Below are positions 11,799-37,269 of a stretch of 41,471 nucleotides of DNA, piece after piece. How positions within the stretch are numbered: the first letter of the stretch is position 1; each line of letters opens with the position of its first letter. The notes below the pieces were generated by a model. It saw only the letters and a program-made list of their open reading frames with translations, was not told the DNA's origin and made no database searches. The stretch is from Dehalococcoidia bacterium (GTDB lineage Bacteria > Chloroflexota > Dehalococcoidia > DSTF01 > JALHUB01), in the NCBI GenBank assembly GCA_034430455.1, contig DAOUEO010000140.1, positions 1 through 41,471 on the forward strand, read 5' to 3'. The translations under genes were made by a program, and so were the position numbers.

Positions 11799-11936
11799 CA
11801 GGGAATCACACAGCGACGCCGCTGGGGCCTCCCGGCGGTGTCCTCTCTCCGGGGCAGCGGTTGCCGGCTGGACTCGCGGCCCTGACGGCGGCTCTGGGGA
11901 GACAAAGGAACCGTGGGGAGGAAAGGACATGACACG

Positions 11937-14657
<2,721 letters not shown>

Positions 14658-14832: not shown

Positions 14833-17241
14833 ATGAAGTCCGGGGGTGCCGCTATGACAGCAAGGCGGGGGACAGCCAAGCCGATCGCCCTATCGGATAA
14901 CGCGCGGGTGGTGCTGGAACGGCGCTACCTGGCCAAGGACAGGCGCGGTCGCGTCGTCGAGACGCCGGAGCAACTCTTCCGGCGGGTGGCCCGCGCCGTC
15001 GCCCAGGCGGAGACGGAGCACGGCGCCAAGCCAGCGGAGACGGCGGCGTGGGAGAAACGCTTCTACGAACTGATGACCGGCCTCCGCTTCCTCCCCAACT
15101 CGCCTACCCTGGGGAACGCCGGCCGCCCCCTGCAGCAGCTCGCCGCCTGCTTCGTCCTGCCGGTGAACGACTCGATGGGGGAGATCTTCGGCGCCGTCCG
15201 CGACATGGCCGTGATCCACAAGAGCGGCGGCGGGACAGGCTTCTCGTTCAGCCGCCTGCGCCCTGCCGGGGACCAGGTGCGGAGCACGGCCGGATTGGCG
15301 AGCGGTCCGGTCTCTTTCCTCAAGGTGTTCGACGCGGCGACGGAGGCGATCAAGCAGGGCGGGAGACGGCGTGGCGCCAACATGGCGATCCTCGCCGTCG
15401 ACCACCCCGACATCGAGGGGTTCATCGGCGCCAAGGCGGACATGGTATCCCTCACCAACTTCAACATCTCGGTGGCGGCAAACGAGCGCTTCATGGCGGC
15501 GGTGGAGGGGGACGAGGAGTACGCGCTGCTGAACCCCCGCACGCGGCGGCCGGTGGGACGGCGGCGGGCGCGGGAGGTGTTCCGCCTGATCGTGGAGAAC
15601 GCCTGGCAAAACGGCGACCCCGGCCTCGTCTTCATCGACCGCGTGAACAGGGACAACCCCACACCCCACCTGGGCGCGATCGAGGCGACGAACCCCTGCG
15701 GCGAGCAGCCGCTCCTGCCCTACGAGTCGTGCAACCTGGGCTCGCTGAACCTGTCGCGGTTCGTGAAGGAGGGCGCGGCGCCAGCGCGACGGAAGACGAA
15801 GGAGACGGCGGCGAAGGCTGTCGACTGGGAAGGTCTGGCGTCGGCGATCCCCGTCTGCGTGCGCTTCCTGGACAACGTCATCGACGTTAACCGATACCCG
15901 ATCCCTCAGATCGAGGAGATGACGAAGAGGACGCGCAAGATCGGGCTGGGGGTGATGGGCTGGGCCGACCTCCTGTTCCAGCTCGGCATCCCCTACAACT
16001 CCGAGGAGGCGCTGCGTCTGGGCGAGCGCATGATGGCGTTCATCCAGGAGAAGGCCGATGAGGCGTCGGAGCGGCTGGCGGATGAGCGCGGCGTCTTCCC
16101 CGCCTGGGAGGGCAGCGTCTACGCCGCGAAGGGCCGCGGCCAGCGGCGGCTGCGCAACTCGACCCGCACGACGGTGGCGCCGACGGGGACGCTGTCGATA
16201 ATCGCCGACTGCTCGGGCGGGACCGAGCCGGTCTTCGCCCTGGCGTTCACCCGGCAGCACTATCTCGACCCCAAGCGGCCGCAGACGGTCACCCGGCTCA
16301 GGGAGGTCAACAAGCGCTTCGAGCGGGCGGCTAGAGAGGGCGGTTTCCACTCCCAGGAGTTGCTCGACGCGCTGGCGGCCGGCGGCAGCCTTCAGGATCA
16401 GGCGGCGGCGCCGGAGTGGGCGAAGAGGCTCTTCGTGACGGCGCACGACGTGTCGCCGGAGTGGCACGTGCGCATGCAGGCGGCGTTCCAGCGGCACACC
16501 GATAACGCCGTGAGCAAGACGATCAACTTCCCCCACGACGCCACGCCCGAAGACGTGGAGAAGGCGTACCTGCTGGCCTACCACGAGGGGTGCAAGGGGA
16601 TCACGATCTACCGCGACCTGTCACGGGAGATGCAGGTGCTCTCCCACGCCACCGTCCGCGGCCCCGAGCAGGCGGAGGCGGTCGCCGCCGAGCGGGCGCT
16701 GGGGCCCCCGGCGCCGGCGCGGCGACCGGGCGAGCCCTACCGGCGGCGTCTGCCCGACGAGAGGGAGTCGATCACACACAAGTTCCGGGTGGGCGACCAG
16801 GAGGGCTACGTAACGGTGGGTCTGTACGAGGACGGGAACCCGGGCGAGGTGTTCGTAACCATCTCGAAGGAGGGGTCGACGATACGGGGGCTGATGGACT
16901 CGGTGGCGGTGCTGACGTCGCTGGCGCTGCAGTACGGCGTCCCTGTCGACGACCTGGCGCGGAAGTTCAGCGGCGTCCGCTTCGAGCCGCACGGCTTCAC
17001 GAACGACCCGGACCTGCCGCAGGCGACGTCGATCGTCGACTACATATTCCGCTGGCTCTCGGAGAGGTTCGGCGCGGAGGCGAGGGCGCGGCCGCGGCGG
17101 CGACGGCGGCCCCACAAGGTCAGCCTGCCTTCGAAGGGGGACATCAGCACGGGGGTAGCGTGTCCGGAGTGCGGGTCGGTGATGGTGTTCGCGGAGGGGT
17201 GCCTGTTGTGCCGGTCGTGTGGGTATGAGAAGTGCGGCTAG
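14833..17241 (+). CDS. nrdJ: Class II (adenosylcobalamin-dependent) ribonucleotide reductase, second paralog
   Basis: Has LSDNARVVLERRYL at the N-terminus, LAACFVLPVND, NPCGEQPLLPYESCNLGSLNL and DNAVSKTINFP. The C-terminal block is RRLPDERESITHKFRVGDQEGYVTVGLYEDGNPGEVF, and the tail is CPECG...CLLCRSCG. The start could be ATG 14833 or ATG 14854. Confidence 0.9.
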   Translation: MKSGGAAMTARRGTAKPIALSDNARVVLERRYLAKDRRGRVVETPEQLFRRVARAVAQAETEHGAKPAETAAWEKRFYELMTGLRFLPNSPTLGNAGRPLQQLAACFVLPVNDSMGEIFGAVRDMAVIHKSGGGTGFSFSRLRPAGDQVRSTAGLASGPVSFLKVFDAATEAIKQGGRRRGANMAILAVDHPDIEGFIGAKADMVSLTNFNISVAANERFMAAVEGDEEYALLNPRTRRPVGRRRAREVFRLIVENAWQNGDPGLVFIDRVNRDNPTPHLGAIEATNPCGEQPLLPYESCNLGSLNLSRFVKEGAAPARRKTKETAAKAVDWEGLASAIPVCVRFLDNVIDVNRYPIPQIEEMTKRTRKIGLGVMGWADLLFQLGIPYNSEEALRLGERMMAFIQEKADEASERLADERGVFPAWEGSVYAAKGRGQRRLRNSTRTTVAPTGTLSIIADCSGGTEPVFALAFTRQHYLDPKRPQTVTRLREVNKRFERAAREGGFHSQELLDALAAGGSLQDQAAAPEWAKRLFVTAHDVSPEWHVRMQAAFQRHTDNAVSKTINFPHDATPEDVEKAYLLAYHEGCKGITIYRDLSREMQVLSHATVRGPEQAEAVAAERALGPPAPARRPGEPYRRRLPDERESITHKFRVGDQEGYVTVGLYEDGNPGEVFVTISKEGSTIRGLMDSVAVLTSLALQYGVPVDDLARKFSGVRFEPHGFTNDPDLPQATSIVDYIFRWLSERFGAEARARPRRRRRPHKVSLPSKGDISTGVACPECGSVMVFAEGCLLCRSCGYEKCG

Positions 17242-24930: not shown

Positions 24931-25584
24931 TCAGGGAGGCGTATAGTAGATGTTTACGGCTACCCAGTCGAGGTAGTAGTCGCGGCTATCGCACTCGGCG
25001 CCGCCTGAGCAGTTGCAGGTCACGCGAAGCCGGAAGTTGGCGTTGCTCAACTCACCCTCAGCCCAGAGTCTGCCCCAGATATCGGCGACCCCTCCCAGGA
25101 CAGCCGTATGCTCGCTGCTGGTCTCGGTAGGATCGACCTTGGCGGCCGTCCAGGAGGAACCGCCGTCCCACGAGAGCTCGACGCCGAGGCTGTTTTCGCC
25201 GCCGACGCCGCCCAGCCACCAGTCGAGGCGCACGCGAATGCCGTCGATGGTGGAGCCGGAGGGAATGGAGATGCCATAGTTGTAGAAGAGGTGACGGTCT
25301 CCAGGACCGTCCATGTTGGAGGCGTACAGCGGGCCGTCACCGTAGGCGTAGGTGGGGTTCAGCTCAAAGCCGTCGTTGTCGCCGCCGCTGGTCGCCGCCT
25401 GCGCGGAGGCGTCGAGGTAGCCGGTGTTGGCGAAGGAGGGGGCGGACGTGAATGAGTTGTCGAGGTTGCCGCTCTGGGCAATGTAGAAACCAAAGCCCGT
25501 GCTGACGGCAAACCCCGCCAGCGCCGACGCCGCCAGCACGAGGAGAAGGCCGCTGGCAATCTTGATTCGATTGGACATCCTCAC
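24931..25584 (-). CDS. Secreted/anchored protein of unknown family, paralog B (last gene of the SipW operon)
   Basis: N-terminal hydrophobic segment followed by F..Q.GNLDNSFTSA, which resembles a SipW-type signal. About half of the C-terminal 170 aa is identical to the upstream paralog. Strong GC3 bias. ATG 25578 (after GGGAGTGAGG) is an alternative start. Confidence 0.7.
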   Translation of the reverse strand: MRMSNRIKIASGLLLVLAASALAGFAVSTGFGFYIAQSGNLDNSFTSAPSFANTGYLDASAQAATSGGDNDGFELNPTYAYGDGPLYASNMDGPGDRHLFYNYGISIPSGSTIDGIRVRLDWWLGGVGGENSLGVELSWDGGSSWTAAKVDPTETSSEHTAVLGGVADIWGRLWAEGELSNANFRLRVTCNCSGGAECDSRDYYLDWVAVNIYYTPP

Positions 25585-25647
25585 TCCCAGCCGGTACGAA
25601 TACGCCGCGGGCCTCCACTGCCGCGAGCGCCGCGGGGCACTGCCCCG

Positions 25648-26292
25648 CTAGGACGGCCCGTAGTAGACGCTCACCGGCACCCAGTCCAGGTAGAAGTCAC
25701 GGCCGCCGCAGGCGCCGCCGGAGCAGTCGCAGGTCAGACGGACCCTGAAGTTGGCGTTGGCAAGCTCGTCTACGGTCCAGGTCCTGCCCCAGGTGTCGCT
25801 GCTGCTACCCAGGATCGCTGTGTGCTCCGACGTCGTCTCCGTAGGATCCGTTTGGGCGGCCGTCCAGGTTGCGCCGCCGTCCCAGGAGAGCTCGACAGAC
25901 ATGCTGTTAGAGTTGGCGCCGCTGTCGAGCCACCAGTCGAGGCGCACGGCAATACCCTCGATGGCGCAACTGCTCTTGATGGACATGTTGTAGTTGTAGT
26001 AGCGGTGGCGGTCGCCGGGGCCGTTGATGTTGCTGGCGTAGCCGCTCCCGTCGCTGTAGGCATTCTGGGGACTGGATTCGAAGCCGTTGTTGTCGCCGCC
26101 GCTGTCCGCTGCGTTGGCGGAGGGATTGAGGAAAGCGGTGTTCCCGGGGAAGCAGTCAACGCTGGTGATGGTACTGCCGATGTTGATCTTCTGGCCGCCA
26201 AGAAGGGCGAGACCGCTGTCGACCATCAGTGTGGCCAGTCCTGATAGCGCCACGAGAGCGGCAATGAGCAGCGTCCCTGCCTTGATCAGCAT
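25648..26292 (-). CDS. Secreted/anchored protein of unknown family, paralog A
   Basis: N-terminal hydrophobic helix. Shares blocks with paralog B (SGGDN.GFE, GPGDRH.YYNY, VRLDWWL, VELSWDGG..WTAA, NANFR.R.TC.CSGG, YLDWV.V..YY.P). ATG overlaps the sipW stop (ATGCTGA). Confidence 0.7.
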   Translation of the reverse strand: MLIKAGTLLIAALVALSGLATLMVDSGLALLGGQKINIGSTITSVDCFPGNTAFLNPSANAADSGGDNNGFESSPQNAYSDGSGYASNINGPGDRHRYYNYNMSIKSSCAIEGIAVRLDWWLDSGANSNSMSVELSWDGGATWTAAQTDPTETTSEHTAILGSSSDTWGRTWTVDELANANFRVRLTCDCSGGACGGRDFYLDWVPVSVYYGPS

Positions 26293-26858
26293 TCCGGTTC
26301 CTCTCCTGCCTGAAAACGTCGGGCTTTGCCTAGCCAGACTTGCCCCAGGAGGACGCCCAGGAGGAGGAGTGACGGAATGAGGATGAGAAGAAGCCGCCCC
26401 AGGGCGCCGCGGGCGAAGTGAACGAGGTAGCCGAGATAGGGAATGGCAAAGACCACGCGGTCCCCCGATCCTTCGAGGGTGACGGGGGCGGGATCAGGGG
26501 AGCTGTTGCTGTCGCCCTTGGTGGTGTAGACCGTGGTGCCGCCGACGCTCTCCATGTCCGTAATGCGATGGAGCACGGGGAGGGCTCTTCCTGCCTTCCT
26601 GATGGCGACGATGTCGCCCTCCTTGAGGGTCTTGCTGTCGACGGTCTCGGTGATGCCGACGCTGCCGGCGGGAAGGGCGGAGCCCATGCTGCCGCCGTAG
26701 ATGACGTAGGCCCGGAAGCCGAACAGGGTGAAGAGGGCGGGGATGGCGAGCGCGATGACCAGGAGCAGGAGCAGCCCAAGACACGCCGAACCGGCGAAGC
26801 GCACCATTCGTCCTGGTGGCAACGCCGGGAGGCGCTCTATCGGGAACCAGCTCGGCAT
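26286..26858 (-). CDS. sipW: Signal peptidase I, SipW/archaeal-ER type (S26 family)
   Basis: TM helix, then the Ser motif YGGSMGSALPAGS, the His motif PVLHRITD and KGDSNSSPD, plus a C-terminal TM helix. This is the pattern of ER-type/SipW peptidases, which lack the Lys of LepB-type enzymes. The start may be the internal MVRFAGS. Confidence 0.8.
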   Translation of the reverse strand: MPSWFPIERLPALPPGRMVRFAGSACLGLLLLLVIALAIPALFTLFGFRAYVIYGGSMGSALPAGSVGITETVDSKTLKEGDIVAIRKAGRALPVLHRITDMESVGGTTVYTTKGDSNSSPDPAPVTLEGSGDRVVFAIPYLGYLVHFARGALGRLLLILIPSLLLLGVLLGQVWLGKARRFQAGEEPEC

Positions 26859-26894
26859 CCTTACACTCCAGCTCCCTTGCCCGCAGCGTTGGCG

Positions 26895-27446
26895 CTACGG
26901 GTTGTTCTTAGTCTGCTCGGCGTCGAAGGTGAATGTAGCGGTCGTGCTGGCACCTTCGGGGCCGGTTGCGCTGGACGGCAGCTCTACCTTGAAGCACAGG
27001 TCCTCGCTGCCGCTGACGGCGAGCGTCCGGTCGCCTGAGTCATCGCCAGGGGTAGAATCGCCCATGGCGCCGTTGGCGAGTGTTCCGGTGTAGAGCTCAG
27101 ACCCGTCGAAGGTCGTGCAGTCGGTGCCCAGCGTCTTTATCGTGAGCGTCAGGGCATCCCTAAGATCCAGAGTGTCGTCGTTGGTCGCGCTGGTGGTCAT
27201 GGCGTAGCGCAGCTCAAGGGTGCCGGTGTTGGAGACTGTAAGCTGGGCGGTAACGGAGTCGCCCGGCGCCATGTTGCTCATCGTGAGAAAGGCGGTGGCC
27301 GGGGTGGTGCTAATATCGACGCTGCCGGAGGTGAAAGCGTTGGCGTCGTTGTCCGTGCTTGCAGTGAACAGTGACAGCCCCCCCAGGCCCAGCAAGCTGG
27401 CAAGAATGCCGATGGCCAAAAGGCTGAGAAGAATGCGTCTGTACAT
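26895..27446 (-). CDS. TasA/camelysin (peptidase M73)-like secreted protein with SipW-type signal peptide
   Basis: N-terminus ...LLGLGGLSLFTASTDNDANAFTSGSVDIS parallels the B. subtilis TasA signal region (...LVGGGTWAAFND....ATFASGTLDLS). The body is a Thr/Ser-rich beta-type sequence. It lies directly upstream of sipW. Confidence 0.75.
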   Translation of the reverse strand: MYRRILLSLLAIGILASLLGLGGLSLFTASTDNDANAFTSGSVDISTTPATAFLTMSNMAPGDSVTAQLTVSNTGTLELRYAMTTSATNDDTLDLRDALTLTIKTLGTDCTTFDGSELYTGTLANGAMGDSTPGDDSGDRTLAVSGSEDLCFKVELPSSATGPEGASTTATFTFDAEQTKNNP

Positions 27447-27806
27447 CTTGACATCCCTCCTCTCGAGGGCTTTGCGGCCGACCGTCCCCGGCCTACGAGG
27501 CCAGGGACAGCGGGCTGGCGATCCCGTCAGATACCTCTGGCGGCCGAACGCCGTCCCTGCCGGGCTCTTCGCGTAGGTCTGCCGGCACCCCCCCCTTCCT
27601 TGTCGAGATGCCTCCGTCGGCGGACTACGCCGGAGGAGATACGCCCTTGGGCATACGCCTCCTGATATACAGTATCGGCAGGGGCAGCGGTCTCTTAAGG
27701 GAGTGAGCCCATCAGTTATCCGAGATAGGGGCGGTGTGATAACCTAGAATCAGGGGAAGGGATCGGTCACGGGGCAGAGGGGCCAGAGAGGAGCGGGAAG
27801 ACTCCC

Positions 27807-28295
27807 GTGAAGTGCGCAACACACCCGAACGTCGAGACAGAGCTGGCTTGCAGCCGCTGCGGCAAGCCGATCTGCCCGCGTTGCCTGGTGTACACGCCGG
27901 TCGGCACCCGCTGTCGCGACTGCGCCCAGGTGCGACGCCTGCCAACCTATCAGGTCCCAGCATCATACCTGCTGCGCGGGATCGGCGCGGCGGCGGCGGC
28001 GGGAGCGGCGACCGGCGGGCTGTGGGCTCTCCTACTGCCTCAGAGGGCCGGCGCCTACGGCTTCTACGTCCTCTTCCTGGCGCTGGGGATAGGCTACGCC
28101 GTCGGCGAGGCGGTGAGCTGGGCGACCAACCGGAAGCGGGGCGCGGTGCTCCAGGGGATAGCGGCGGCGGGGGTCGTCCTCGCTTACCTTGTGCACAACC
28201 TGGCAGCGGGGGTGGGCATCATCCCCCGCGACGACATCTACGGCTACGTGATGACGGGCATCGCCATCGTCATAGCGATAGGGCGGCTCCGCTGA
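27807..28295 (+). CDS. Membrane protein with N-terminal B-box-like zinc ribbon
   Basis: CATHP...CSRCGKPICPRCLV....GTRCRDC has eight Cys/His ligand positions, followed by about four hydrophobic helices. GTG start. Divergent from the TasA-like operon. Confidence 0.65.
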   Translation: MKCATHPNVETELACSRCGKPICPRCLVYTPVGTRCRDCAQVRRLPTYQVPASYLLRGIGAAAAAGAATGGLWALLLPQRAGAYGFYVLFLALGIGYAVGEAVSWATNRKRGAVLQGIAAAGVVLAYLVHNLAAGVGIIPRDDIYGYVMTGIAIVIAIGRLR

Positions 28296-28377
28296 CGGGA
28301 TCGTCCTTTTCCCCCATCCTCTTGGGGCAAGAGCAGGCGCCTTTGGCTAGAAGGGGCGAAAACCGCTTTCCGGCGGC

Positions 28378-28644
28378 TCAGCGGAGGACGAAGGAGACCA
28401 CCACCAGGAGGGCGAAGACCCCGACGCCTACGAGGACTATCCGGCGCAGGTCGTTCTTCACGTAGCTGAAGTCCATCATCCCCGGCACTCTCGGCTTGGG
28501 AGCGGGCTGCTCCTCACCCTTGAGCGGCGAAGCGAGAGGGGCGACCCGCGGCCGGGCAGCGAGCGGCGGTGGGGACGCAGGGGCACGGCGGCGGGCCTTC
28601 CGGCGGGACGGGCGACTGGCGCTGGGGCGTGGTTGCTTGGGCAA
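28378..28644 (-). CDS. Small tail-anchored membrane protein (Pro/Arg-rich N-terminus); start uncertain
   Basis: GC3-biased frame ending in a clear TM helix (IVLVGVGVFALLVVVSFVL). TTG 28644 or the internal ATG-ATG (MMDFSYVKNDL) are possible starts. Confidence 0.4.
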   Translation of the reverse strand: MPKQPRPSASRPSRRKARRRAPASPPPLAARPRVAPLASPLKGEEQPAPKPRVPGMMDFSYVKNDLRRIVLVGVGVFALLVVVSFVLR

Positions 28645-28743
28645 TGTATCCTCGTATGCTTTGTCGGTCGGTCGGTCGAAGGAGATTATACATCGCAGGC
28701 TGTGAGGAGCACAACGCCGACGCGCCGATGCCGACCAGCCCGG

Positions 28744-29307
28744 CTACTCTTTGGGAGGAGCGTTAGGGTTATCCACCACGTCCTCACGATCCACCGCCAG
28801 GGCACCGTCCTTCCATATGTAGTGGACCTTCTTGATCCGGCTGGGGAAACCGGGGGTATCGCCGGCGCTGTAGACCGGCAGCACCTCCACCAGGTGGTGG
28901 TCCTCAAGCTGGACCTGCACCGATCCCTCCGCCGGCACCTCCGACAGCAGGGCGACGAGCTCGCCGCCGCGATAGCCGAGGACGATGAGGGCGAGGTTGC
29001 CGGCCGTTCCTCCCGAGGAGATAGGGACTATCGCCTCCTCCCGGCCGTCGCCGGTGAGGTCGGCGTAGAGGACGTCCTCCTGGCTTACTTCTCCTCCCAG
29101 ACGCTGGAGGAGGGCCTCGACGTCGGCCTGCTGGGCGAGGTCGACTTCTCGTATGTCCAGCGGCGCCGGGGAGGGCGTGACCCCAGACGTGGCGGCGGGG
29201 GTGGGAGTCTCCTTCTTGTCGTGACCATCACGGCAGGCGACGGCGAGGGCGGCAAGCACAGCCACCGCGATGAAGGCTATCCAACAGAGGAGCGTCGCTT
29301 TTCGCAC
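28744..29307 (-). CDS. Hypothetical lipoprotein
   Basis: Signal peptide with lipobox LAVAC, a Pro/Thr linker, then a globular domain. No family recognised. Confidence 0.7.
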   Translation of the reverse strand: MRKATLLCWIAFIAVAVLAALAVACRDGHDKKETPTPAATSGVTPSPAPLDIREVDLAQQADVEALLQRLGGEVSQEDVLYADLTGDGREEAIVPISSGGTAGNLALIVLGYRGGELVALLSEVPAEGSVQVQLEDHHLVEVLPVYSAGDTPGFPSRIKKVHYIWKDGALAVDREDVVDNPNAPPKE

Positions 29308-29422
29308 TAAGGCGTCCTTGCCCGCCGTCCGTCTCCTGCGGCAGGGGCAGGCCGTGAGCGGGAAAACAGCGGGGCACCGCGCATTGCCGGGCGGAGCCCC
29401 CTGCTGCCCCCGATGATGAAAG

Positions 29423-32808: not shown

Positions 32809-33648
32809 ATGCAGTGGGTCTTCCTCAACGGACGGATCATTGAAAGGGAGAGGGCCGCCATCCCGGCCCTCGACCGCGGCCTGCTCCACGCCTACGGCCT
32901 GTTCGAGACGATGCGCTCCTACAACGGGCGCGTCTTCCGCCTCGACGCCCACTACCGCCGCCTGTGTGAGGGGGCAGAGGCCCTCAGCCTCACCCTGAAC
33001 CTCAACCTTGATGAGATCGCCGCCGCCGTCGAGACGCTGCTGGAGAGGAACAGCCTCCCCGACGCCCGCATCCGCCTGACCGTCACCGCCGGCCCCGAGA
33101 ACGGCGAAAGGCAGGTCCTGCTCGTCGCCACCCCGCCTACCGACTACCCGCCGGAGCTCTACGAGAGGGGCATGGCCACCGTTACGAGCGCTACCCGTCG
33201 CAATGAGACTTCACCGCTGAGCCGCATCAAGTCGCTCAACTGCCTGGACAACATCCTGGCGCGCGAGGATGCCCGCCGCCAAGGTGCCGACCACGCGATA
33301 CTGCTCAACACGCGGGGCTTCGTCGCGGAGGGGAACTCAAGCAACGTCTTCCTGGCCCAAGGCGATCGGCTGCTGACGCCGGGCATCGATTCGGGCGTCC
33401 TGCCGGGGATAACGCGGGCCGCCGTCATCGAGCTGGCGCAGGAGGCCGGCACCGCCTGCCTAGAAGGCGAGGTCGAGGCGGCGATGCTCGACGACGCAAA
33501 GGAGGCGTTTCTCACCGGCTCGGTCATGGGGATCATGCCGCTTACCCGGCTCGACGGCCGCCCCATCGGCAGCGGCGGGCCCGGCCCCACGACCTTGGCG
33601 ATCAGCCGCCTCTATGATCAGGCGGTGGCGCGGGAGACGCGGAGATAA
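32809..33648 (+). CDS. pabC: Aminodeoxychorismate lyase / class IV aminotransferase-fold protein
   Basis: Fold-type IV pattern (DRGLLHAYGLFETMR, IKSLNCLDNILA, GNSSNVF, GVLPGITR). The pabC call rests on adjacency to pabB. A branched-chain or D-amino-acid aminotransferase cannot be excluded. Confidence 0.65.
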   Translation: MQWVFLNGRIIERERAAIPALDRGLLHAYGLFETMRSYNGRVFRLDAHYRRLCEGAEALSLTLNLNLDEIAAAVETLLERNSLPDARIRLTVTAGPENGERQVLLVATPPTDYPPELYERGMATVTSATRRNETSPLSRIKSLNCLDNILAREDARRQGADHAILLNTRGFVAEGNSSNVFLAQGDRLLTPGIDSGVLPGITRAAVIELAQEAGTACLEGEVEAAMLDDAKEAFLTGSVMGIMPLTRLDGRPIGSGGPGPTTLAISRLYDQAVARETRR

Positions 33649-33700
33649 GGCAGGCCGCCAACGCCGGTACGGGGTGTCTCATTGGGCCGCTGGCGTTGGC

Positions 33701-34312
33701 CTAGAACGCGTAGTCCGTCTTCCAGATCTCCCAGACCCTGCCGGCGGTGCGAATAGTCTCCTTCTCCTCTTTGAGAGTAGGCCTCCCCGGCTGCCAGCCG
33801 GAGGGGGTCAACTCGCCGGTGGAGCGGACGTGCTGGAAGGCCTTGAGCTGCCGAATGAGCTCAGTTACGTTGCGACCCACGGGCGGCGTCAGTATCTCCG
33901 CTGCCTGGATGATGCCGTCAGGGTCAATTATGAAGCGGCCACGCACGTTGACGCCGAGCTCCTCGTTGTACACCCCGTACAGGGATCCGATCTTGCCTCC
34001 GGGGTCGGCCAGCATGGCGTAGGGGACACCCCCCTCCACCATCTTCGAAAGCTCCACCTCCTGCCAGACCTTGTGGGAGTAGACACTGTCCACACTCACC
34101 GAGAGCACCTCCGCCTCCATCGCCCTCAACTCGCCATACTTGACGGCAACTGCCGCCAACTCGGTCGGTCAGACGCAGGTGAAGTCAGCGGGATAGAAGC
34201 AGAGGATCACCCACTTCTTCTTGAGGTTGGAGAGTTTGACCTCCTGGACCTTGCCATTCCAGTAGGCCTTGGCTGTGAAGTCTGGTGCTTGCTTGCCAAC
34301 GATCGGCGTCAT
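33701..34312 (-). CDS. Peroxiredoxin (AhpC/Prx1 type) with in-frame TGA at the peroxidatic position; candidate selenocysteine-containing Prx
   Basis: ATG 34312 (RBS AAGGAGGG) reads MTPIVGKQAPDFTAKAYWNGKVQEVKLSNLKKKWVILCFYPADFTCV. TGA at 34171-34169 follows, then PTELAAVAVKYGE... continues in the same frame to the stop at 33701. The ORF track reports only the part after the TGA (33701..34159). Confidence 0.75.
34140..34159 (-). promoter_or_regulatory. SECIS-like hairpin downstream of the in-frame UGA
   Basis: The minus-strand RNA forms UUGGCGGC-AGUU-GCCGUCAA, an 8-bp stem (one G-U pair) with a 4-nt loop containing G. The stem starts 9 nt after UGA. Confidence 0.5.
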
Positions 34313-34368
34313 TGCGCCCTCCTTTCGCTAGGCCGGTCGTACGTGCGGCCCCTGCCAGAATGGAAATG

Positions 34369-34397
34369 ATCGTAGCAAGGGGGTTCTGGCCTGTCAA
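34369..34397 (-). promoter_or_regulatory. Candidate peroxiredoxin promoter
   Basis: On the minus strand: TTGACA (34397-34392), 17-bp spacer, TACGAT (34374-34369), about 55 nt upstream of the ATG. Confidence 0.45.
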
Positions 34398-34439
34398 CCA
34401 GAGGAGAGAATACAGAGCGAACGCCTCTGCCTCACCTCC

Positions 34440-34506
34440 CGCTTGAGGGGCCGACTTCGCGCGGTCTACAATGGAATCGCGATGACGAAGACACGCTTCG
34501 CCGCCC
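34440..34506 (+). repeat. Direct repeat copy A: duplicated uvrC promoter plus first 8 codons (uvrC' remnant)
   Basis: 66 of 67 positions are identical to 35380-35446 (single t/c difference at 34457/35397). It contains TTGAGG-18 bp-TACAAT and ATGACGAAGACACGCTTCGCCGCC. Degenerate similarity (ctgcccg, cccggcg) continues to about 34530. Confidence 0.9.
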
Positions 34507-34569
34507 TGCCCGAGCCGATTCCGCCCGGCGGCGGGTTGGGCCTCAGCGACCGGAAAGGACCAAAGGAAC

Positions 34570-35310
34570 ATGAAACTTCTTAGCTGGCAGGCTGCTCTTG
34601 GACTGGCTCTACTTGCGTTGTCGGTGCTGGTGTACGCGCTGCACTACGCGATATTCAGAGACTCGCATCACATCTTCATCTACCTGATCGGCGATGTCGC
34701 TTTCGTGTTCATCGAGGTTCTCCTGGTCACTCTGATAATCCATGAGTTGCTCAATGTCAGAGAAAAGCAGAGCCGGCTGGAGAAGTTGAATATGGTCATA
34801 GGCGCCTTCTTCAGCGAACTTGGAACGGAGCTGCTGGCCTACTTCTCGGACCTCGACCCCAAGCTGAACCAGATCAGGGAGCAGCTCATCGTGGACAACG
34901 AGTGGTCGAATGAGGAGTTCGCCAGCGTCAGTCAGCGGCTGAGGAAATACGACTACGGCGTGGAGATCGAAACAGCGAACTGGGGAAATCTGAGCAGCTA
35001 CCTCATTGAGAAAAGGGGCTTCCTGCTGAGGCTGCTGGAGAACCCGACTCTGCTGGAACATGAGTCCTTCACAGAGCTCCTTCGCGCCGTCTTCCACCTG
35101 ACTGAGGAGCTGGCAAGAAGGGAGAACCTCGGGGAGCTGCCCGACACCGACCGTAGACATCTTGCCAACGACATCACGAGGGCATACGTCCTGCTCGTGC
35201 GACAGTGGCTGGACTATATGCACCACCTGAGAGACAACTACCCCTACCTCTTCTCCCTCGCCATGAGGACGAACCCATTTGACCAACAAGCGTCGGTGAT
35301 AGTGCGTTAG
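34570..35310 (+). CDS. Hypothetical two-TM membrane protein with helical cytoplasmic domain; compositionally foreign
   Basis: 246-aa ORF starting at ATG with AAGGA 4 nt upstream. Two N-terminal hydrophobic helices are followed by a charged helical domain. Hand-counted GC is 53% and 45% in two 60-nt samples, against 72% in the adjacent uvrC sample. Confidence 0.7.
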   Translation: MKLLSWQAALGLALLALSVLVYALHYAIFRDSHHIFIYLIGDVAFVFIEVLLVTLIIHELLNVREKQSRLEKLNMVIGAFFSELGTELLAYFSDLDPKLNQIREQLIVDNEWSNEEFASVSQRLRKYDYGVEIETANWGNLSSYLIEKRGFLLRLLENPTLLEHESFTELLRAVFHLTEELARRENLGELPDTDRRHLANDITRAYVLLVRQWLDYMHHLRDNYPYLFSLAMRTNPFDQQASVIVR

Positions 35311-35379
35311 TGCGTTTGAGCGCAAGAGACAGCCCGCCGGTGCGCGCGGCAGCCCCCACGGCTGGCGAAGGGCCCCGCT

Positions 35380-35446
35380 CGCTTGAGGGGCCGACTCCGC
35401 GCGGTCTACAATGGAATCGCGATGACGAAGACACGCTTCGCCGCCC
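35380..35446 (+). repeat. Direct repeat copy B: functional uvrC promoter and start
   Basis: Partner of 34440-34506. TTGAGG 35383-35388, TACAAT 35407-35412, uvrC ATG at 35422. Confidence 0.9.
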
Positions 35447-37269
35447 AGCTCGCCGCCCTGCCCGCTCGACCCGGCGTCTACATCATGCGCGACGGCGAGG
35501 GCCGCGTCATCTACGTCGGGAAGGCGGCCAACCTGCACAGCCGGGTGCGCTCCTACTTCGGCTCGCCCCGCAGCATGGAGCCGAAGACGCGGGCGCTCGC
35601 GTCCGCCGTCGCCGATTTCGAGTACATCGTCACCAATACGAGCCAGGAGGCGCTGCACCTGGAGGCGACCCTGGTCAAGCGCCATCAGCCCCTCTTCAAC
35701 GTCCGCCTCAAGGACGACAAGCACTATCCCTACCTCCGGATCGACGTGCAGAACTCCTGGCCGCGGGCCGAGATCACCCGCCGCGTGGCCGACGACGGCG
35801 CCCGCTACTTCGGGCCCTACGCGAGCGCGGGGTCGGTGCGCAAGGTGCTCGATCTCATCAACCGGCTCTTCCCCTGCCGCGCCTGCACGAAGACGATAAG
35901 CGGCCAGGACCGGCGCCCCTGCCTCGATTTCTACCTCCACCGCTGCCTCGCTCCCTGCGCCTCCTACTGCAGCAAGGAGGAGTACGACGAGATGATCCGG
36001 CAGGCGATCCTCTTCCTCGAGGGGCGGACGGACACGGTCGTGCGGGAGATCAGAGCGCAGATGGAGGCGGCATCGGAGAGCCTCCAGTTCGAGCGGGCGG
36101 CGCGGCTGCGCGACCAGCTCCAGGCGATCGAAAGGGTCACCGAGCGGCAGGTGACGGCCTACGCCACGCCCAGCGATGAGGATGTCTTCGGCCTCGCCCG
36201 CGCCGACGGGGATGTGTGGGCGCAGGTGCTGTTCATCCGGGGGACGAAGATGACCGGCGGCGACCACTTCGCGCTGGACGGCGCAGGCGACGAGCCCGAC
36301 GCCGAGGTGATGAACAGCTTCCTGAAGCAGTTCTACGAGTCGGCGACCTACGTGCCGCGGAGAGTGCTGCTGCCGGTCGCGGTCCCCGAGCAGGCGCTGA
36401 TCGAGGAGTGGCTGTCGGAGCGGCGCGGCGGCCGCGTGAGCCTGCTCGTCCCCCGGCGCGGGAACAAGCGGCATCTGGTGGCGATGGCCGCCGACAACGC
36501 CCGCGAGGCGCTGGAGATGATGCGGGTGAAGTGGCTGGCGGACAGCGGCAAGACGCAGCGGGCGCTGGCCGAGCTGCAAGAAGAGCTGAACCTGCCGTCG
36601 CTGCCGCGGCGGATCGAGTGCTACGACATCTCGGACATCAGCGGGACGGCCGCCGTGGGGAGCATGGTGGTGTTCAGCGACGGCCATCCGCGGCGGGCGG
36701 AGTACCGTCGCTTCCGGATCAAGACGGTGGAAGGGGCGAACGACGTGGCGATGATGGCGGAGGTGCTGCGGCGTCGCTTCAAGCGGGCGGCGCGGCGCGA
36801 GCCCGGCGGAGAGGAGCCGGACGAGAAGGGGCAGGCCTGGGCTGCCCTGCCCGACCTGGTGCTGATCGACGGCGGGAGGCCGCAGCTCAACGCCGCCCTC
36901 GACGCGCTTCGGGAGATGGAGGTGCCGTTCCTGCCGGCGGCGGGGCTGGCGAAGCAGCAGGAGGAGCTGTATGTGAAGGACGTGGCGGAGCCGATCGTCC
37001 TGCCGCGGACGTCGCCGGCGCTGTACCTGCTGCAGCGGGTGCGGGACGAGGCGCACCGCTTCGCTATCACATACCATCGCAAGGTGCGGGAGAAGGCGGG
37101 GACGAGGTCGGCGCTCGACTCGATACCGGGCGTGGGGCCGAAGCGGAAGCGGGCGCTGCTGCGGAAGTTCGGGTCCGTGAAGAGGATACGGGAGGCGGCG
37201 GTGGACGAGATCGCGGCGACGGTGGGGTTCACGCGCTCGCTGGCCGAAAGGGTCAAGGAGTACCTGTAG
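35422..37269 (+). CDS. uvrC: Excinuclease ABC subunit C
   Basis: GIY-YIG start (PGVYIMRDGEGRVIYVGKAANL..RV.SYF), a UVR domain (QFERAARLRDQLQAI), an endonuclease domain and a C-terminal (HhH)2 (IPGVGPKRKRALLRKFGS). ATG 35422 lies only about 10 nt after the TACAAT box. Confidence 0.9.
   Translation: MTKTRFAAQLAALPARPGVYIMRDGEGRVIYVGKAANLHSRVRSYFGSPRSMEPKTRALASAVADFEYIVTNTSQEALHLEATLVKRHQPLFNVRLKDDKHYPYLRIDVQNSWPRAEITRRVADDGARYFGPYASAGSVRKVLDLINRLFPCRACTKTISGQDRRPCLDFYLHRCLAPCASYCSKEEYDEMIRQAILFLEGRTDTVVREIRAQMEAASESLQFERAARLRDQLQAIERVTERQVTAYATPSDEDVFGLARADGDVWAQVLFIRGTKMTGGDHFALDGAGDEPDAEVMNSFLKQFYESATYVPRRVLLPVAVPEQALIEEWLSERRGGRVSLLVPRRGNKRHLVAMAADNAREALEMMRVKWLADSGKTQRALAELQEELNLPSLPRRIECYDISDISGTAAVGSMVVFSDGHPRRAEYRRFRIKTVEGANDVAMMAEVLRRRFKRAARREPGGEEPDEKGQAWAALPDLVLIDGGRPQLNAALDALREMEVPFLPAAGLAKQQEELYVKDVAEPIVLPRTSPALYLLQRVRDEAHRFAITYHRKVREKAGTRSALDSIPGVGPKRKRALLRKFGSVKRIREAAVDEIAATVGFTRSLAERVKEYL

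Follow-up and report, generated by a model that had tools for sequence, protein, structure and literature searches.

Selenocysteine (Sec)-containing peroxiredoxins constitute an established protein family, PrxU, which is curated as NF040737. As cited in a 2026 review (PMC13188914), a Sec-peroxiredoxin was shown experimentally in Eubacterium acidaminophilum by Sohling et al. (2001), and the review, with reference to that work, counts peroxiredoxin (PF00578, motif TxxU) as one of the prokaryotic selenoproteins with an experimental foundation. A survey from 2006 had already counted 12 Sec-peroxiredoxin genes, one of them in Syntrophus aciditrophicus. Two other Sec-containing families with the AhpC/TSA fold are described in the same review, a peroxiredoxin-like thiol:disulfide oxidoreductase (UxxC) and Prx-SUH (CxxU, NF045827). 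For the hairpin that directs recoding, the rule from E. coli calls for an upper stem-loop approximately 11 nt from the UGA whose apical loop contains G23 and U24, both essential (PMC8659212).

The window analysed here, a whole contig of 41,471 bp with 67% G+C, contains a further member of the PrxU family on its minus strand. The family has been known since 2001 and is curated, which leaves little to be learned from the recoding as such; the modest added value lies partly in a coherent C-x-U subclade, a little-noticed sub-lineage that can be defined from this gene and its relatives. The locus is very probably a single gene, prxU, of an uncultured Chloroflexota organism (Dehalococcoidia-like), encoding a 203-residue thioredoxin-fold PrxU in which UGA48 is decoded as Sec via a downstream hairpin and Sec48 occupies the peroxidatic position. 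Its features, in the direction of transcription, are as follows.

34369–34397, minus strand: promoter-like site (TTGACA, 17-nt spacer, TG-extended TACGAT), a consensus match only
34318–34324, minus strand: Shine-Dalgarno sequence AAGGAGG, read from the sequence, 5 nt before the prxU ATG
33701–34312, minus strand: complete prxU coding sequence, 203 codons (Sec48 counted) plus TAG, from profile and alignment evidence
34172–34312, minus strand: N-terminal 47 codons, 5′ of the UGA, a separate 47-aa 'AhpC' in public records, under selection
34199–34201, minus strand: Cys38 codon TGC in the LCFYP strand, candidate resolving thiol, from codon conservation
34178–34180, minus strand: Thr45 codon, catalytic Thr of PxxxTxxU, 100% Thr in the alignment (motif per PMC13188914)
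34175–34177, minus strand: Cys46 codon TGC at Sec-2, the C-x-U hallmark, conserved in the subclade
34169–34171, minus strand: UGA codon 48 at the peroxidatic position, predicted to be read as Sec, from alignment and recurrence in 78/80 loci
34140–34159, minus strand: putative SECIS upper stem-loop, 8 bp, TTGGCGGC/GCCGTCAA, loop AGUU, with G at 34150 and U at 34149, from comparative data
34128–34170, minus strand: extended predicted SECIS helix whose lower stem takes in the GA of the UGA, from a minimum-free-energy fold of the window sequence alone
33941–33943, minus strand: Arg124 codon, the catalytic Arg conserved in peroxiredoxins, invariant in the alignment
33806–33808, minus strand: Thr169 codon at the canonical resolving-Cys position (GEVCP to GELTP), from alignment

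The minus-strand reading frame (34312..33701) extends over 203 codons from the ATG (34312-34310) to the TAG (33703-33701). The sole internal stop is the TGA at 34171-34169, codon 48, in the context F-Y-P-A-D-F-T-C-V-[TGA]-P-T-E, and the surrounding peptide reads KWVILCFYPADFTCV-[UGA]-PTELAAVAVKYG. Public databases list two pieces for this contig where the single gene should be, one of 47 aa, named 'AhpC', and one of 139 aa. The preliminary description had reported one frame of about 203 residues of the AhpC/Prx1 type, missed by ORF calling, in which FTFVCPTE becomes F-T-C-V-[TGA]-P-T-E at 34171-34169. The 203 codons and the Pfam matches given below agree with that reading, the split in the public records bears out the missed call, and the motif and all of its coordinates are correct. 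Upstream of the gene, the putative promoter matches the consensus at 10/12 positions and lies approximately 57 nt before the start codon; the consensus scan yields 2 promoter-like sites, against 0.2 expected from shuffles.

Profile searches, performed with U replaced by C in the query, assign the protein to the PrxU family. The NCBIfam equivalog model NF040737 'peroxi_PrxU' is matched at 315 bits (cutoff 270), with residues 5-200 on model positions 38-232, and Pfam recognizes AhpC-TSA (4e-36) together with 1-cysPrx_C. Models of the UxxC oxidoreductase and of Prx-SUH (NF045827) are absent among the NCBIfam matches. With phmmer against the PDB, residues 4-184 align with the 2-Cys peroxiredoxins 4fh8, 1we0, and 1qmv (E 3.5e-44 to 4.3e-41). 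In the alignment to solved 2-Cys peroxiredoxins (4fh8, 6e0f), the UGA codon falls on the Cys of FTFVCPTE, so that the TGA column equals the peroxidatic Cys of Cys-type enzymes, a check that had been proposed beforehand. Simultaneously, GELTPSGW is situated opposite GEVCPAGW, which places Thr169 at the canonical resolving-Cys column; the absence of Cys from this GEVCPANW-type motif had likewise been read correctly. In most members of the PrxU family, this column holds T, M, I, A, or L. The window protein thus stands outside the typical 2-Cys AhpC/Prx1 enzymes, having Thr169 for the resolving Cys and a score of 175 bits with the AhpC model TIGR03137, below its cutoff of 272. PrxU of E. acidaminophilum, which the preliminary description had put forward as a precedent, is an apt one, the Sec-peroxiredoxins being established and curated under NF040737.

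Pro41, Thr45, and Arg124 are invariant in the alignment, pointing to standard peroxidatic chemistry. Judging from the fdhF rule of E. coli, UGA codon 48 would be decoded as selenocysteine and not as a stop, the hairpin 9 nt past the UGA offering its apical (A/G)GU(U/C) loop to SelB carrying Sec-tRNA(Sec). Sec48 would then be situated with Pro41, Thr45, and Arg124 in a standard peroxidatic site, where it would reduce peroxides and be converted to the selenenic acid. Peroxide reduction via the selenenic acid is established chemistry for the PrxU family. Because the C-terminal resolving Cys is absent (Thr169), resolution of the oxidized Sec48 would require a nearby thiol, Cys38 or the subclade-specific Cys46, or a thioredoxin-like reductant acting directly.

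The hairpin TTGGCGGC-AGTT-GCCGTCAA is located at 34159-34140 on the minus strand, 9 nt after the TGA, with a stem of 8 bp. Its loop G, at 34150, lies 19 nt from the A of the UGA, matching the 8-bp/4-nt-loop hairpin with a loop G about 19 nt away that had been noticed at 34159-34140. To compare it across orthologues, the UGA and the following 45 nt were aligned without gaps in 68 distinct sequences. The apical G22 and U23 are invariant (68/68). Pairs 19-26 and 20-25 never vary, while 17-28 departs in 1/68 and 18-27 in 3/68; these four core G-C pairs, being fixed or nearly so, therefore carry little or no covariation information. Five pairs change on both sides. Pair 15-30 is altered on both sides in 8 sequences (from G-C to A-U, C-G, or U-A), pair 18-27 in 2, and the loop-flanking bases switch jointly from A..U to G..C in 11/68. 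The covariation score is reached by none of 500 shuffles and is higher than in slid registers. Pair 16-29 is often unpaired (31/68).

Furthermore, the third-base entropy at the four-fold-degenerate codons +5 to +9 is 0.2-0.9 bits, versus 1.7-1.96 at most others in the gene, with a few lower values also outside the hairpin, for example at Thr -3 (0.99 bits) and Val -1/Pro +1 (1.33 bits). The fold of the window sequence over 60 nt has an energy of -21.6 kcal/mol and a z of -1.88, only modestly better than shuffles, and Rfam at a permissive threshold finds no matching family in 33600-34500; hence, the weight of the SECIS call falls on the comparative data. These data support the hairpin as the probable bacterial SECIS of prxU, maintained by selection.

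The reading next in probability, though an improbable one, is that the Sec machinery has been lost from this genome, so that UGA48 is decoded inefficiently by a near-cognate tRNA (Cys/Trp) or the protein is mostly truncated. The window itself offers some ground for it: ARAGORN and Rfam find four ordinary tRNAs and no tRNA-Sec there, and Pfam scans of its 36 ORFs detect no SelA, SelB, or SelD. The additional sequence on the sister contig of the same species (GCA_964625965.1), which extends the dcw side only, contains no selA, selB, selC, or selD, and no tRNA-Sec is found beside prxU in 60 related loci. However, a window of 41 kb amounts to approximately 1-2% of a genome, and absence from it says little. 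Sec-to-Cys replacement also occurs in the clade, at L029:3657 in Dehalococcoidia bacterium LH_S1, the only Cys (TGC) form nested among the C-x-U sequences, which keeps Cys46 (C-x-C) and looks like a recent conversion as judged from its sequence. In the hairpin of this lone revertant, a stem base that is invariant elsewhere and the U of the loop have been lost, the decay predicted from relaxed SECIS constraint, whereas the window hairpin is undamaged and matches the clade consensus exactly. Dehalococcoidia are, moreover, reported to be selenoprotein-rich; in a 2026 database paper, MAGs of this class have 46-49 selenoproteins and rank among the most selenoprotein-rich bacteria. We infer that the genome is Sec-competent, and the presence of prxU marks this uncultured Chloroflexota lineage as a user of Sec.

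The taxonomic placement follows from the window's own genes. The closest named relatives of its RecA are Dehalococcoidia and Chloroflexota MAGs (80-88% identity), and the closest PrxU relatives in named genomes belong to the Dehalococcoidia and Anaerolineales (<=76%). The window contains a dcw cluster (murD to ftsZ), nrdR, two ribonucleotide reductase genes, recA, rny, and a tRNA cluster, followed in our inventory by a pabB-like gene, a class IV aminotransferase, prxU, a 246-aa ORF without Pfam match, uvrC, and others. The ribonucleotide reductase genes (11913-14657 and 14833-17241) are adjacent, lie downstream of nrdR, and share a TSCPD domain at the C-terminus; they differ in that the first carries the B12-dependent N-terminal domain of class II (Ribonuc_red_2_N) and the second the all-alpha domain (Ribonuc_red_lgN). 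From 24931 to 29310, a run of ORFs with coding-like composition (24931-25584, 25648-26292, 26286-26858, 27807-28295, 28378-28644, and 28744-29307) is without Pfam match, and a camelysin-like M73 peptidase gene (26895-27446) adjoins this run. Between prxU and uvrC, a 78-nt direct repeat (34435-34512 and 35375-35452; 94% identical, 940 nt apart) brackets the lower-GC 246-aa ORF (34570-35310, plus strand), and the start of uvrC (MTKTRFA...) lies within its second copy. The arrangement looks like an insertion or a duplication.

A nonsense mutation in the Cys codon of a peroxiredoxin would leave a pseudogene at this locus, since a single base change turns TGC or TGT into TGA, and the public annotation indeed gives the locus as a pair of fragments. 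Among species-representative genomes, a scan yielding 80 related loci from different species across several phyla shows the same TGA at the same codon in 78; the remaining two are the TGC form in L029 and one locus cut by a contig end. The TGA also recurs at this codon in 4 metagenome contigs with intact N- and C-terminal parts. Wherever the locus is not interrupted by the end of a contig, the N-terminal segment is intact and no further disruption exists; the additional frame disruptions that the preliminary description had named as grounds against its claim are thus seen in none of these loci. In 630 pairs of 36 C-x-U genes, pN is 0.14 versus a pS of 0.72 over 43 codons upstream of the UGA, and 0.10 versus 0.71 over 110 codons downstream. 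Purifying selection therefore acts on both halves as parts of one translated frame. With the recurrent TGA, the intact frames, the same-frame selection upstream of the TGA, and the conserved hairpin after it, the pseudogene reading is effectively refuted and hardly credible.

Genome-wide reassignment of UGA (code 4 or 25, to Trp or Gly), with a residue other than Sec at position 48, has an equally slight chance of being right. A protein search with PrxU returns 6247 homologs, and among the best 120 of these, the catalytic column of the 112 full-length sequences holds Trp in 74 and Cys in 38, which at face value favours reassignment; the other 8 are truncated calls (135-152 aa) that begin just after the UGA. 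The Trp residues, however, are translation artefacts of code 4, because the contig behind the best 'Trp' homolog P0001 (L002:162-788) has TGA at the catalytic codon and its true terminal TGA is also rendered W. Moreover, TGA works as an ordinary stop in the window, terminating 8/29 Pfam-confirmed genes (ftsW, murG, murC, murB, ftsZ, and others) at their expected lengths, and no in-frame TGA of the window other than that of prxU has coding-like sequence on both flanks. Code reassignment is rejected on these grounds. As a separate observation, gene callers that translate the Sec UGA with code 4 systematically mis-annotate selenoproteins on short contigs.

A one-base sequencing or assembly error is the least credible of all and is rejected, the identical 47-aa and 139-aa fragments being present in a second, independent NCBI assembly (GCA_964625965.1, a 50,698-bp contig) and in JGI and ENA records, and the same TGA in a 97%-identical JGI contig (L001). 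The central claim of the preliminary description, Sec at the peroxidatic UGA, consequently stands on the NF040737 score, the TGA in 78/80 loci, selection, the conserved hairpin, and the exclusion of code reassignment and assembly error. The gene is intact, it belongs to the PrxU family, and both its UGA and its hairpin are conserved.

Within the family, the window gene is distinguished by a Cys two residues before the UGA, a C-x-U arrangement already pointed out and located at codon 34177-34175 (Cys46). Besides the window, Cys46 is found in 33 species-level loci and 4 metagenome contigs; a Tyr stands in its place once (L028). The codons of Cys46 in the C-x-U genes are TGC in 31 and TGT in 7, and, on this comparative evidence, the C-x-U feature can be taken as real and selected, Cys46 being kept via both codons. 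The genomes concerned belong mainly to the Dehalococcoidia and Anaerolineales, and some to Planctomycetota and Syntrophus. In a neighbour-joining tree of PrxU with column 46 masked, the C-x-U sequences are near-monophyletic, the window sequence being divergent and situated just outside the main cluster. The group is further marked by Ala42 (Gly elsewhere) and by three residues inserted ahead of the C-terminal AG(K/R)VWE.

A second cysteine, Cys38 in the LCFYP strand, had been overlooked. It is present in every complete PrxU locus examined (100% Cys, with the codons TGC and TGT) and in all but one of the Sec forms among the database matches, while 8 of the 16 database matches without Cys38 retain the canonical resolving Cys of VCP. 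This pattern, in which Cys38 is kept in PrxU and tends to be missing from the few sampled relatives with the VCP Cys, makes it a candidate at least as good as Cys46. The resolving thiol for oxidized Sec48 may accordingly be Cys38 and/or Cys46, and direct attack of thioredoxin on the selenenic acid is also possible. For the C-x-U subclade, a more specific and tentative proposal, on balance unlikely, is that the selenenic acid on Sec48 is attacked by Cys46, which would close a selenenylsulfide ring within the C-x-U motif of one molecule, perhaps with a relay to Cys38; an intramolecular selenenylsulfide had already been suggested in the preliminary description. If true, Cys46-Sec48(-Cys38) would be a self-contained three-chalcogen redox centre, with a resolving geometry undescribed for any peroxiredoxin.

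Around the C-x-U genes, no dedicated reductase or conserved operon partner is found; rubrerythrin, desulfoferrodoxin, Fur, and a second peroxiredoxin occur only sporadically. In two Planctomycetota-like loci (L003:276-1274 and L004:222-2258), the C-x-U prxU lies in an apparent oxidative-stress operon in the order Fur, rubrerythrin, desulfoferrodoxin, prxU, and then a radical-SAM gene; the window prxU is without such neighbours. Two Phycisphaerae MAGs (L074:7995-8705 and L076:9989-10699) possess a Cys-type peroxiredoxin (FYPLDFTFVCPSE) approximately 700 nt downstream of the Sec-PrxU, forming a tandem Sec/Cys peroxiredoxin pair.

For the contig and many relatives, prxU is mis-annotated, either split into two fragments or with its UGA rendered as Trp, and recognizing the gene restores an antioxidant enzyme to the inventory of the organism. 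Cys38 and Cys46 provide two candidates for the resolving step of selenoperoxiredoxins.

Compared with the SECIS of E. coli fdhF, the window hairpin is likewise a stem-loop a few nucleotides past the UGA, inside the coding sequence, with an apical G and U. The apical GU is at +23/+24 in fdhF and at +22/+23 in the window prxU, an agreement within one nucleotide. The sequence is different, the spacer is 9 nt versus 11 nt, and the upper stem is without an obvious bulged U, none being seen in the predicted stem of the minimum-free-energy fold. In PrxU loci of the Syntrophomonadaceae/Clostridia type, the hairpin is situated approximately 7-9 nt further downstream, with a stem start approximately 16-18 nt after the UGA and another sequence. 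MAG loci of the Syntrophomonadaceae and other Bacillota type (L047, L059, L062, L065, L066, L068, L071, L073, L077-L081, and L084) contain a different hairpin approximately 16-36 nt after the UGA, for example CAUAGC-AGUUG-GCUAUG, where the peptide reads SHIAVGY versus AAVAVKY. Given these differences in place and sequence, the PrxU SECIS appears to have been remodelled between lineages.

At the protein level, the window PrxU shares the fold and the catalytic Pro/Thr/Arg constellation with typical 2-Cys AhpC/Prx1 enzymes (4fh8, 1we0, 1qmv), but has a predicted Sec for the peroxidatic Cys, Thr for the resolving Cys of VCP, and Cys for Phe at position 38. With the UxxC oxidoreductase and Prx-SUH (CxxU, NF045827), it has in common the PF00578 fold and, by prediction, a Sec in the redox centre, whereas the motif and its register differ. 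The closest likeness in these features is to PrxU of Eubacterium (Peptoclostridium) acidaminophilum and NF040737: a length of approximately 200 residues, a UGA-encoded Sec at the peroxidatic position of PxxxTxxU, no C-terminal resolving Cys, a Cys in LCFYP, and a SECIS hairpin directly downstream. Unlike the NF040737 family at large, however, the window PrxU has Cys for Phe/Tyr at Sec-2, Ala42 for Gly, and three inserted residues near the C-terminus.
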